Positions 12,001 to 37,618 of a stretch of 64,000 bases of DNA are shown in pieces (position 1 is the first letter of the stretch; the number at the start of each line of letters is the position of its first letter). This DNA comes from Vicugna vicugna (taxonomy: Eukaryota), in the NCBI GenBank assembly GCA_013265495.1, contig MU058009.1, positions 3,863,780 to 3,927,779 on the forward strand, written 5' to 3'. The translations under genes were made by a program, and so were the position numbers. The notes beneath the pieces were generated by a model that had not been told where the DNA came from, searched no databases, and saw nothing but the letters and a program-made list of their open reading frames with translations.

Positions 12001-13557
12001 TCTTGCGTTTTGCTCTTTATAGTCCAACATGCCGTTTATTCACCCAGCTGTCCAAGCTGGAAACTTCTGAGTCTTTCTAAAAACCCACTTCTCTCCCCAC
12101 CCTCCCTCTGTATCGAACTGGCACCTCTTCCTGTTCATGGTGTCACAGACAGACTCTCCATCCGTCACCGCACTGGTCCCGCTGCTGTGCGTTGGCTCCA
12201 GCCCCGTCGTCCCCGCAGTTCTGCCCCCGCCGTCCGCCACCTGCGCCTCTGGTCTTTGCAGCATCATTGTCTTGTTTTCCTTAAACACAGAGTTGGCCAC
12301 GTCAGCGTGAACACTGACTTTCTCAGTGTGAGATGTCAGTGGGGAGAATTTCAAGGCAATGCATCGGTTGTGATTTTGATAAAATGCCCTCTTGCTTTTG
12401 ATTTCCGTGGGTCTTTTTGTCACACAGAGTCTCGTAACCTCAAGCCTGGTCTTGTCTTTCTCACCTGTCTGCGAGGTGTGGTGTGTGTGCCCTTAGAGGG
12501 CGCGGAAGCAGTCACTGACGGTTGTGTAGACGGTTTCCTTTTGCCAGGATGCATGGTCCAGGTCTGTGAACGATGTATCTTTTTCCATAGGCATACGTGC
12601 ATTTTTAAACTTTTGAATATTATTTTATATTTATACTCTTTTATAAAAAAATGCCTATATTACCTTAATTACATACAGATCAATATTGGAAGCAGGGAGT
12701 GATAATGAGTCACCTGTCAGTTTTATCAGAACATACACACATTAAAACATTGATTTGTTATAGAAGCAGAGTGGGAGAAAAAAAAAGCTGTATTTTTCAT
12801 TTTATTAAAGAGCTGTACCCTCTGAGAGGAGTCGGATCAAGTAGGAATATTCATTACTGTTACTATTCTGCAAAGCAGCATACACCTGGGAAGGTTCCAG
12901 CGTCATGTGCTGGAGTCATTTGTTCCCAGTTATGTGTTTTGGTTTCTTTTTTGATTGATTCCGTTGATATAATGTAATGTTTTACATTAACATTATTGCA
13001 GTGATAATCACTTATGAATTTATAGCATTAGCATGATGAGTATAATTATTAACCAAATATTAAAGTCTTGCTTTAAGGGAAAATGGCAGCTGTGGAATTC
13101 TGCTGTTCCCCGTCTCCATGAGTTAAATGCAAACCCCCTTGGCCAGCGTTCAAGGTCCGTTGGGATCCACTAACCTGACTTCCACCTTCTTTGCTCCACG
13201 AACCAGGACCTTGCCCTCTGGTTTTCTTTCCTGGCTTTTTAACCCATTTGACACCATCCTGTTTTCCCATGCCTTTAAAAGTACTCTAGAGTGTTAGTTT
13301 AATAGCCGTATAGTAATCTAGGTCTACTTAGGCCATCATTTATGTAACATCTTCATTTTGTTGAGAGTTAGGATAATGTCCAATTATGTGGTGTTAGGAA
13401 TAATGTTACAAAGAACATCATTGTTGATAACTTTTTGTCTATATCAATAGATAGTTTTTTTTTTCTGTAGTAACTTATTGACAACCTGAAAATGTGCTTG
13501 AAATAGCAGCTGGTGGCAGAGCCTGGCCCGGGAGAGACGCACCTGCTGACAAAGGAC

Positions 13558-14313
13558 TTTTTTTTTTCTTCTTCTTTAACGTATTCTAGTTTATTTTTGA
13601 AAGGAAGTGAATACATGAAAACACAGGAACACTGTTGATGCAATTCAGTTGTTAACAAAGTGCATGTAGCTTTCAATGTAAATATTGTTTGATACATTAC
13701 AGCTAAGTAAAAAGCTAACAAAATCAAAATGAAGATTCAGCTTAGTACCTAGGATACGGAAAATATGAGACAAGAATATAAATTCTAGATAAACAGTAAC
13801 AAAATTGGGAGGAATATTCTTCTCCCCACCCCCGACACAAAAAAGCCAACTGAAAAATAGTCTGAAGTTAGTTGGATTTCTGCTTCCCAAGCAACCAGAC
13901 AAGCTACACAATAATACCAACATGCAATACCTGAAATGTAGAATCACATTCTGACTGCTGCTCTTGGGTGTCTGCATTTAATTTACAATTCTCTGGTGTC
14001 TGGCTGATTTCATCTTGCAGAACAGGAGATATGCCATGAGCATCATCTACAGAAGCACTGTCAGACAAGGCATCTAACTTTTCAGGGGAACCAGCTATGT
14101 GAAGCTTACTATCTCCAGTCCCTTCATCCAAATGGGTCCTCTCATCAGCATCGTCTAACTGTTGAACTGAAGTTAAATACTGTTCAAGCAGACTGTTATC
14201 CTGCTCGTGGTTTGAGCTTCCCTTACTCCATTCACCATGTTCTTCACTACCATCCCCTAGGTCTGGCTCTTTGCCATGTTTGACTGTGTCAGTGGAATTC
14301 CCCATTATGGAAT
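13558..14313 (-). pseudogene. CEP97: 5'-truncated processed (retro)copy of CEP97: C-terminal coding part, 3'UTR, polyA signal and A-tail
   Basis: Translation [50 protein letters not shown]...DSKLHIA...ECDSTFQ.LHVG..V* is collinear with the recalled C-terminus of mammalian CEP97. Similarity stops abruptly at ~14313. AATAAA at 13590-13595 (minus) is followed 12 nt later by an A-rich tail at 13558-13577. No other CEP97 exon was seen in the window. Confidence 0.88.
13590..13595 (-). terminator. Canonical polyadenylation signal AATAAA of the retrocopy
   Basis: Minus strand reads caaa-AATAAA-ctagaatacgtt-aaagaagaagaaaaaaaaaa. Confidence 0.75.
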
Positions 14314-14317
14314 TCAT
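13904..14317 (-). CDS. CEP97: Intact 137-aa ORF: CEP97 C-terminal fragment started by a junction ATG (translation unproven)
   Basis: ORF track 13904..14317 with no stops or frameshifts; ATG in gccATGa context; ends in TAG at the CEP97-equivalent position. Confidence 0.4.
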
Positions 14318-15291
14318 GGCTAGAGACTAGAGACTGCATTGGAGAAGTTCAGGGAGGGAGACCAGGGAGGACGGGGGCAGACCTATCAGTCAGTGATTTC
14401 CCATCCGTAATTCTGCCAGCTCTCCCCCAGCTTGGAAACTGACTTGTCCATTTAATGGTCACTCTGGAAACAAGCCTGGTTTTGGAGTGGCTGACTAGCC
14501 ATTGCCATCGCAACGCGGCTGGAATATTTGATCCAGTAGCTCCCCTTGTTCCTTTCTGACTTTGATTGACAGTTTCTACTTGGGTGAGTCCTCCCTTACT
14601 TCTGCCTGCCGACCTGCCTTCCACCCGCTCTGCAAGCACAATACTGCGGGGGCCACACGCATGTTTGCTGGTGCGGCTGGGGGAGCCGGCCGTGACCGAG
14701 ACGCAGCCCGTCCTGGAGGGGAGGACCTCATCCTTCGTAGGACACACAGTCAAGGATGCTTGCCCTCGTCCCTAATCGTGCTGTTCATTTTAGTGACTCC
14801 CACTCGAGCAGCCCTGTCTCCTCCTACTTCAGGGTGGGGACACTGCTGACACCTGGAGCCTCCCCTTTGCTCGACCCCAGAAACCGCGAGCGTGTGCGAG
14901 TGAATATTCCTCTCGATGCTCTGAGTTCTTCGATGGAAACTGCCTGGACTGCTGCCACCACTTGCATTGTTATTAACCATCCAGTAATAACGTCCTTGCG
15001 ACCAGCAGCACACTCTGCCCTGTGCCGCTTACTCACGATAATCACTGTTCCACCTCTTTTTTATTGTTTCTTTACCATCACCCAGGGGCTGTTCAGGAAA
15101 TTAAAATCCAATAATAAGAACGAAGAATAATTAAAATAACACCAAGAACAATAGAAATGAAATGACAAATACTGAAAAAGGCGAGAAAACGCAACCAAGG
15201 AGCCAACTTCCCCGTGACAGGTCCTAGTAAGATCACCCAGGAATGCGTGGCAGGATCCTCCCTGAGAACTTGAAATTTCTCTCCTTCTTAC

Positions 15292-28119: not shown

Positions 28120-28977
28120 GCGGCCTCCTGACCCTCCCTTTCCTGCAGTCCTGTCGTCTGTCATCACCAAGTCCTGCTGACTTCACCCCAGATTCCCCTT
28201 GGACTCTAAGTTTCCACTCCCTCCTCCACGCCGCACGCCTCTGTCACCCGCTCAGACCGCAGCAGCGACCACCGGCCGGCGCGCCCTCACGCCGAGCCTC
28301 GGCCCGCCGCTCTCAGCGCGGGAGTCTCCTGCGAGTCTGACCGTGTGAGCCAGCTTCTGCTCCTCCCGTTCACCCTTCAGGGCACTTCCGCGCCACTTAG
28401 AATCAGGTCCCAAGTCCCTTCCCCGACCTGGCTGGCCCGGCCCTGCCTCCTCCGCACGAGCCCTCTCCCGCCTCAGTGGTCCCAGCCTCAGGGCCGTCTC
28501 TCCGTCCTGAGAAAAGGCACTTGGCGCCTCCATCCTGATGTCTTTCCCCTTCTGAAGGGCTCCTCCCACCCCCCACCNNNNNNNNNNNNNNNNNNNNNNN
28601 NNNNNNNNNNNNNNNNNNNNNNNNNNNNNNNNNNNNNNNNNNNNNNNACCCCCCACCCCCAGCCTCCCTGCAGCCCTGACCCCGGTCGCCCTCCAGGCTG
28701 CTTCCACTCTCCCTCCTCCCTCCTGGTCCCGGTTGGCTGGCTCCTGTTATCCTCTCTTAGTACGAACTTTTTATTTCTATTTCTAACGATGCTTCTTAGC
28801 ATCTGTAGGTATACACTTATACACGTACGTTTGCTCAGCGTCTGCCTCACGCGCTAGATCACAAGGAAGCCCCACGTCTGGCGGGGATCATGTCTCTTTC
28901 TTACCGTTTTATACTCAGTGTTTGGAGTGTGGTAACTGCCAAAGAAATAGATGCTCAAAAATTGCTTAATGAATGCG
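28120..28977 (+). mobile_element. L2 LINE 3' region, interrupted by an assembly gap
   Basis: 'catcaccaagtcctgctgacttcacc', 'ccacttagaatcaggtccc', and 3' end 'atagatgctcaaaaattgcttaatgaatg'. Confidence 0.7.
28578..28647. other. Assembly gap (70 N)
   Basis: Run of n flanked by C-rich sequence. Confidence 0.99.
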
Positions 28978-35357: not shown

Positions 35358-37618
35358 TCAAGGCTGCGAAGGATAAAGGGCTTTACTGGGGTCTTAAGAA
35401 TCCCAATTCATGGATGTGAGGGCGACCTGGCTGCGACATCTGTCACCCCGTGATCGCCAGGGTTGATTCGGCTGACCTGGCTGGCTGGGCGGATGTCCCC
35501 TTCCTCCCTCACGGCTCCCCGTGTGTCCCTCCCGGAGCGGCGTGCGCGGTCGGAGAGGACGGCCACCCCCATGGAGGAGGACCGTTCTTCTTGGCTAAGG
35601 GTGTGCGAGTAGCTGCTCTCCCTGCTGGACCCTCCAGACAAGCTCTCAGGAATCCCCGTTCATGAGGCACAGATCTGGGTAAAACAGAGTGTTCTGGGGA
35701 AGGGAAGGAGTCAGGCTTATGAAGGCACGAGCCGCAGGGCTGCTGAAGTTGCCCGGCGAGGATGGTGGACACAAGTCAGTCCTCAGGGCGCATGGGTTGT
35801 TTCAGGGCGGGGACAAGATGAGCGTCCTGATGCTCCAGGTGCCAGTGCTAGGACGGCAAGTGCTCGAAAGCTCAGCTTCCACCCAGGCGGGCTGCCGCCC
35901 TTCCCCCACGGCTCCAGGCTCCTCTAGAGGGCTTCCTTAGCAATACTGTGCCCATTCTGAGTTAGTTTCTTCCACCCGTGCCAGGTCTGCTTTTCCCAAA
36001 GCCCCCTGGCCGTCCACAGCACCCAGCTCCTCCAGGAGCTCCCTAGGGGGACGTCCTTTGCTTAGGTCCCCATGTGGCTCAACGTAACGGTGGGGAAGGA
36101 AGCCCCTGGATGAAGGACATCCGCCCCACTTACCTGATGCAGGGCCCGACTTCCAACTTCCTCCGGGGGTGGGGGGTAAATTATCTGAATGACAGGATTT
36201 AACGTGGTCCAAAGGAGGCCAAGGGTGTGAATTCTGAGTGTTCTTCATCGTAGCTCAGAGACACAGGCAGATGGGCGGCATGGTCCCTCTGTCAGCTGGG
36301 GCCCAGCCAGAGCTGCATGTTGAACAATTACGACCTGAATCTGTGGGGCCGACACTGGGCAGCGCGCTCACAGTTCTCCAGGCCCAGCAGGTGCGGAGGC
36401 CTCCTGGCCCTTCCTTGGCATGGGCCCCCTCTGAGGCCATCCTCCTCAATCACTACGCCTGCCTGTCAAGCTTGAACCAAGTAACGAGACAGGATTCAAT
36501 TAGTTCTCCCCAATAGACTGCTCCCCTGTCTATGCCCAGCCTCCCGGGTGACCCCATTATGATAATGGCCCAGCCTGGCTGCTCTCAGAACAGGTCTGAT
36601 GGAGAAGAGAGAACCTCCCTGAAGCGTGCATGACAGAGAGGCTGGCAGACTATGGCTCCGTCTCCGCTGGCTCTGGACAGGAGCCTTCTGCTGCCCCATT
36701 GTCACCGCTGAGCGATGCCATGTGCTCGTTCACACCACATGCTGCTGGCATCCTGGGAAGAGCCCATCGGGCCCTTCACGCCAACAATGTGCTCGATCTG
36801 CTGACACGGAAGGAGACAGGTGGTCTCAGGCGGCAAGCTGTGTTGCCATCACTCTGGCATTCCAGCCTGGACTCGGTCTTCAGAGCAGGTGCCCGTTTTT
36901 ATATCTTCAGGTGTAGGATGGTGTCCTTCCCTCTGGACCTCAATAAACACACATTCATGTAAAATCAGGGCAGGCTGACTGCAAAACTTTTGGATTCAAA
37001 AACATTAGCAAGTCAGTCAGTCATCTGAATATTTGATTTGACATCAAGCATCTTAGTCTTTCCAAATACTTGAGTGTGCTAATATTGTGATAACACAGTC
37101 AAAGAAGCATCGTGGTATGGTGATCGAGTGTTTCAATAATCTCAAATAATTTTTAACACGGCGTCGTCTCCAACCTCTGGCGAGAATTCCGCCCTACGTG
37201 CACGCACCCGTCACTTCAGTCTGTGCCGGTCTCTGAAAAGCGGCTGTGTAATGTTCAGCCAAGACTGACGCTAAATTTGGAGATGCTTTAAAACACAGAG
37301 ATTAAATGTATGTCACATGTGATAAGCTATTCAGCTAAGGGGATTATATGATCCAAGTAATTTATAGCTGTAGGCAAATTACTTTGTGTTCTGGGGGTGA
37401 TAAAATCCACACACGTGTCTGAATCTGGAATGGGGATGGGTCACAAACCCCCGGCTCCCCGTCCCGGGCCCACGCTGCTTTGCTTTGGATCCATAGGCAA
37501 ATCTCTTACTTTTTTTTTTTTTTTTTTGTTTTCACCTCATGGTTTCCTTTTCTCCTCCACTCTGCAAGCTGCTTTATATAGCGCATGTCCCTGTAGTTCT
37601 GGGATAATTTATTACTTA

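Follow-up and report, generated by a model that had tools for sequence, protein, structure and literature searches.

What is the tail of a centriolar protein doing, with its reading frame open, in a stretch of vicugna DNA on another contig than the gene that encodes that protein? CEP97 is the partner of CP110 in the cap at the distal end of the centriole, and the window considered here, by which we mean the whole 64,000-nucleotide stretch that was analysed, contains on its minus strand a frame that reads like the last part of CEP97. A preliminary description, made from the letters of the sequence, had taken this segment for a 5'-truncated retrocopy equipped with all the cis parts needed to express a stand-alone acidic tail protein, i.e. 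for a candidate nascent retrogene. The first part of that description stands; the second finds no support. With high confidence, we regard the segment as a very young, 5'-truncated processed pseudogene of CEP97, likely made by LINE-1 after the split from camels, whose frame is open by youth and from which no product is expected.

The parent gene and the limits of the copy

Which protein does the frame represent? When the frame was compared with longer proteins, 250 matches at E<=0.001 were obtained among 489 candidates, and centrosomal protein of 97 kDa is the name of nearly all among the 120 matches listed. The top match is CEP97 of Vicugna pacos (860 aa; 99% identity, E 2.8e-79), the CEP97 proteins of Camelus are 96% identical to the frame, and those of cetaceans are about 87% identical. 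Aligned with the parent's last exon and five CEP97 proteins of full length, residues 3-137 of the frame fall on CEP97 residues 726-860, with one change, and the C-terminal identity first assigned to the peptide therefore holds. These residues lie well downstream of the leucine-rich repeats of CEP97 and of LQACWRGFYAR, at about residues 559-570, which we take from its motif pattern to be the IQ-like stretch. Full-length CEP97 matches bear the leucine-rich repeat families PF14580, PF12799 and PF13855, none of which is present in the frame; indeed, the frame matches no Pfam family. CEP97 is drawn with leucine-rich repeats, a coiled coil and an IQ motif in an account that places the binding of CP110 in the middle part of the protein (PMC11756378, citing Spektor 2007). 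Judged by its sequence, then, the frame fails as a working CEP97, being without the N-terminal leucine-rich repeats, the CP110-binding middle part and the IQ motif, as had been anticipated.

The source genome was searched for the parent (2.03 Gb in 12,405 contigs). A DNA search with positions 13558-14333 led to two places, the window itself and C5938:898320-899070, and a search with the alpaca CEP97 protein returned 11 exon matches on C5938:878816-898725, together with the window copy and three weak leucine-rich repeat paralogues of 33-35% identity. In other words, the multi-exon parent that the preliminary description had predicted at another locus is found on contig C5938, with the copy on contig C1220, and this copy is the only other match to the CEP97 tail in the genome. 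Copy and parent locus are identical at 748 of 751 aligned positions, which is far beyond chance.

The limits of the copy are sharp (Table 1). At one end, the match to the parent stops at 14312, in keeping with the end of similarity at ~14313 noted earlier; at the other, the DNA past the A-G-A10 tail is unrelated to the parent. The ~330-nt AT-rich 3' untranslated region, the AATAAA and the A-rich tail of the preliminary description are all in place between them. The last exon of the parent begins at L002:1204, after ...tttatag, and from L002:1205 onward is colinear with CEP97 residues 627-860. The copy starts 297 nt within this exon, at L002:1501, and crosses no exon junction; since it sits entirely in the parent's last exon, loss of introns cannot be shown from it.

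Table 1. Features of the CEP97-derived segment and its borders, in window positions
Feature	Positions	Strand	Basis
CEP97-derived segment: 743 nt that end at the poly(A) site and close the last exon of the parent (= L002:1501-2243)	13570..14312	-	
Open frame: M-N followed by CEP97 residues 726-860 with I732T	13904..14317	-	translation and alignment
Junction ATG (gccATGa) in the non-CEP97 flank	14315..14317	-	two codons ahead of the first CEP97 codon
In-frame ATG of CEP97 itself (parent M728, codon 5 of the frame; context ataATGg)	14303..14305	-	alignment
Substitution, copy C / parent T: ATT>ACT, I>T (I732T)	14292	-	pairwise alignment
Substitution, copy C / parent T: AAT>AAC, synonymous	14195	-	pairwise alignment
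Stretch derived from the 3' untranslated region, 334 nt, identical to the parent, GC 0.34-0.42	13570..13903	-	alignment
Poly(A) signal AATAAA; the last templated base follows 20 nt after it	13590..13595	-	sequence and alignment
A-rich tail, A-G-A10, 12 nt; the parent reads TAGAAAAATTTACC there	13558..13569	-	alignment
Pre-existing flank: pyrimidine-rich run (22/30) ending in CAG (14334-14336), 17 nt before the ATG	14334..14366	-	motif

Within these limits, the copy differs from the parent by 2 substitutions in 739-743 aligned bases (0.27% diverged). The isoleucine-to-threonine change at 14292 is derived in the copy, since isoleucine or valine occupies this position in the parent locus and in each of the five full-length CEP97 proteins compared. 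Both substitutions run from T in the parent to C in the copy, i.e. from AT to GC, an observation to which, with n = 2, we attach no weight. The parent has a peculiarity of its own: its coding sequence (L002:1205-1906, C5938) has C at residue 722 where the alpaca reference P0001 has G (STECSES/STEGSES), which is either a variant or a species difference.

Route and time of insertion

How did the last exon of one gene come to lie on another contig? We propose that reverse transcription, in all likelihood by the LINE-1 machinery, started at the 3' end of a polyadenylated CEP97 mRNA; that it would have been incomplete, with only the last ~743 nt copied; and that the cDNA piece would then have been inserted into unique, non-coding, GC-rich DNA. 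The segment derives from the mRNA of a gene elsewhere in the genome (C5938 versus C1220), and its 3' end falls at the polyadenylation site and is followed by an untemplated A tail, albeit a short and impure one. A boundary 20 nt past AATAAA, continued by untemplated A's, implies a polyadenylated RNA intermediate, and the 5' end inside an exon is as abortive reverse transcription would give. It is this poly(A)-site boundary, and no other feature, that would point to the mechanism of a processed pseudogene. The preliminary description was thus right to speak of a 5'-truncated CEP97 retrocopy: the parent is on another contig, only residues 726-860 are represented, and the A tail past AATAAA is absent from the parent.

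One hallmark is missing. No target-site duplication of about 7-20 bp was found when the 60 nt before the insert were compared with the 90 nt after it; the longest words common to the two flanks are 6-mers, which are out of register (there are also 5-mers), and no flank word of at least 10 nt recurs within 7.7 kb on either side of the insert. LINE-1 is well known to insert at times with a deletion at the target site or by a blunt join, and the absent duplication could reflect such an event or, alternatively, capture of a cDNA at a break. Might LINE-1 then have played no part, a fragment of CEP97 cDNA or mRNA, or a piece of DNA, having been captured in the repair of a double-strand break? Capture of this kind would account for the missing duplication, and a tail of 12 nt is short enough to suit it; however, an end exactly 20 nt past AATAAA with untemplated A's requires a polyadenylated RNA intermediate, which makes a pure DNA duplication unlikely, while the familiar LINE-1 deletions and blunt joins offer another explanation for the bare flanks, and an RNA-templated repair event would in any case still be a retrocopy in outcome. 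We therefore consider break-repair capture unlikely and retain the processed pseudogene of probable LINE-1 origin.

A further candidate, a chimeric retrocopy joined to a small RNA, was rejected: no partner of the U6 type lies next to the insert by Rfam, whose sole match in the window is a 7SK copy at a distance of 21 kb. The latter is a full-length match to the 7SK RNA family (RF00100, 195.6 bits, model positions 1-331) at 35412-35723 (+). There are at least 40 7SK-like copies in the genome, the best other copy being only 88% identical over 237 nt, and the one in the window looks like one of many old 7SK pseudogenes.

The surroundings of the insert have features of their own. The whole window has a GC content of 0.50 and a CpG observed/expected ratio of 0.53, very high for 64 kb of mammalian DNA, and the retrocopy shows up against this as an AT-rich, CpG-poor patch, with a ratio of 0.08-0.23 (figures for 13200-14300). 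About 90 nt beyond the tail there is a second A10 run (13455-13464, minus strand), preceded by AATAAG at 13474-13479. The stretch 13455-13479 has no other place in the genome by a search that skips very common words, and a small insertion of greater age may have left it as its tail.

When did the insertion take place, and in which lineage? From 2 changes in 739 bases, the copy is roughly 1.2-2.7 My old if both changes fell on its own branch, with a Poisson range of 0.15-9.8 My, the rates behind these figures (1-2.2e-9 per site per year) being assumed rather than measured in camelids. At three positions at which Camelus has R, D and A, the copy agrees with the llama/alpaca-type parent in having K, G and V, and the V of copy and parent is derived, as horse, cat and Camelus all have A. 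The K, G and V in common with a llama/alpaca-type parent indicate that the copied mRNA was of the South American camelid type and that the insertion postdates the camel split. In the course of events that we propose, it would have occurred in the llama/alpaca lineage following the separation of that lineage from camels.

The open frame and the case for a gene

Is the open frame a sign of a gene? The uninterrupted 137-codon frame of the preliminary description is there, with its stop (ATG at 14317-14315 to TAG at 13906-13904, minus strand), as is the in-frame gccATGa in the adjacent non-CEP97 DNA; another in-frame TAG, at 14329-14327 (-), lies three codons above the junction ATG. The junction ATG is not needed, because the M728 ATG that belongs to CEP97 itself follows four codons later, and by sequence context (ataATGg versus gccATGa) the latter is the better placed of the two, leaving the former redundant. 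We see in the junction ATG a coincidence, with a chance of roughly 5%, that contributes nothing required.

The openness of the frame is equally undemanding of explanation. Stop codons are created by 4.4% of the possible point changes in the frame, and after 2 changes some 91% of neutral copies would be expected to have kept it, so that openness is uninformative here; the frame would most likely still be open only through the youth of the copy. Functional retrogenes can be recognised by a frame kept open beyond neutral expectation, and no such excess is seen at this locus. The coding changes relative to the parent, 1 non-synonymous and 1 synonymous, are too few for dN/dS.

It is the claim of a complete set of cis parts in the preliminary description that lacks support. 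The 1 kb upstream contains no TATA box and no GC box (GGGCGG/CCGCCC) in a motif-level test, and its CpG observed/expected ratio, 0.57-0.64, is near the 0.53 of the whole window; at the level of motifs, in other words, no acquired promoter is found. A product is not to be expected from a copy that arrived without a promoter, and the copy is presumably transcriptionally silent. The flank does hold a pyrimidine-rich run ending in CAG (Table 1) that resembles a splice acceptor, and one may speculate that a host transcript might use the insert as its last exon. A Pfam scan of 300 of the window's 344 open frames of at least 70 aa, those at 1-51 kb (the other 44 lie at 51-64 kb), gave sub-threshold chance matches only and brought no host-gene exon to light, although such a scan misses short exons.

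What would the product be, were it made? The predicted protein is acidic (pI 4.2; 29 D+E against 7 K+R) and of 15 kDa. An AlphaFold2 model, for which 20 aligned tails were used, is disordered for the most part (mean pLDDT 58, pTM 0.19), with a single predicted helix at residues 42-60 that coincides with the most conserved block of the CEP97 tail, the residues of which are invariant or almost so across the 20 aligned sequences. On the strength of this model, the product could at most serve as a free copy of the conserved helix motif. The protein has no exact copy among about 15 billion sequences, nor is there a near-identical protein of 75-240 aa: the best of 20 matches reaches 86% identity, and each of the 20 is a last-exon frame from another species.

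We can now weigh the reading of the locus as a nascent retrogene that gives a 137-aa acidic CEP97 tail protein, whether its transcription starts in the DNA upstream or an unseen host transcript takes it up as an alternative last exon, by way of the CAG at 14334-14336 and the copy's own AATAAA. In its favour are the intact frame, in which either of two ATGs could be used, the poly(A) signal, an acceptor-like pyrimidine run and CAG 17 nt upstream, and the retention of the predicted helix, the most conserved element of the CEP97 C-terminus; yet neutrality alone predicts the intact frame, the upstream kilobase has neither of the promoter boxes and only background CpG, the one non-synonymous change falls where the parent locus and each of the five full-length CEP97 proteins keep I or V, the databases hold no such protein, the modelled product is largely disordered, and no host-gene coding exon is recognised at 1-51 kb. 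The proposal of a nascent retrogene thus finds no support in the frame or in its flank, and we judge it very unlikely. Scarcely credible, too, is a bolder version in which a newborn South American camelid gene, read via the acceptor-like site or nearby CpG-rich DNA, makes a disordered acidic tail, the conserved helix included, that titrates a partner of the CEP97 C-terminus; if it were true, this tail could tune centriole capping or ciliogenesis, for example in the testis.

That the insert arose in assembly, through the misjoining of part of the last CEP97 exon into the contig, is highly improbable: near-identity to the parent could favour mis-joining, but each flank is single-copy in the genome, no gap lies nearby (the nearest N run is 14 kb off), and the two private substitutions and the tail junction are missing from the parent, so that the junction cannot be assembled from parent reads and a chimera is unlikely. 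An index search adds a weak point on the same side, in that, of the words sampled from 13000-14900, a share of 0.89-0.97 is present in 14 DNA runs that bear 4 organism labels; only about 6% of the words are specific to the insert, so that these shares are not proof of the insert in each run. The shares in three RNA runs (0.35, 0.34 and 0.29) are close to the 0.35 expected if RNA contigs carry only the parental form of CEP97; copy and parent are not separated by them, and we give them no weight. Exact-pattern scans of metagenome contigs for a flank word on each side of the insert gave 0 matches. The window has only one assembly gap, a 70-base N run at 28578-28647.

Significance and comparison with known systems

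The locus is best read as a processed pseudogene, young and otherwise ordinary; it is no working CEP97, and we see no sign that it is a retrogene. For biology at large it carries little weight, as one processed pseudogene among thousands in a mammalian genome, and yet there are several uses to which it may be put. It is evidence of retroposition in the llama/alpaca lineage within roughly the last few million years, and its presence or absence might be used as a marker in work on camelid phylogeny or populations. Annotators are reminded by it not to infer a gene from an open frame when a retrocopy is near-identical to its parent, and also that reads from the copy, with T/C differences at two sites, can be mistaken for variants in the last exon of CEP97. 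Additionally, expression of the copy, if it occurred, would provide a natural experiment on the C-terminal tail of CEP97, which is unstudied. We found no report of a CEP97 retrocopy or processed pseudogene in the literature, though the tables of RetrogeneDB may list this copy.

How does the copy compare with what is known? Set beside its parent, it is the same protein tail save for one change where the two overlap (residues 3-137 of the frame and 726-860 of CEP97), and it is unlike the parent in having no leucine-rich repeat domains, no CP110-binding middle and no IQ-like stretch. Functional retrogenes offer a second comparison, for which we draw on RetrogeneDB, described as a catalogue of animal retrocopies that includes those of alpaca (PMC4069623), and on the UTP14 retrogenes as an example (PMC5750009). 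Like them, the copy is RNA-derived and has an open frame and its own poly(A) signal; unlike them, it represents 135 of 860 codons and has no promoter that could be found, whereas such retrogenes keep most or all of the parental coding sequence together with expression, constraint or both.

The closest comparison is with the processed pseudogenes that LINE-1 has scattered through mammalian genomes. The copy departs from these in its very short tail, in lying within one parental exon, in being unusually young (2 changes in 739 nt), and in the target-site duplication, which was not found and is the one defining feature on which it fails. In the rest it resembles them, as an unlinked, 5'-truncated copy of an mRNA 3' end that stops at the poly(A) site, bears an A tail and has no promoter of its own, and for the most part it qualifies as one of their number.
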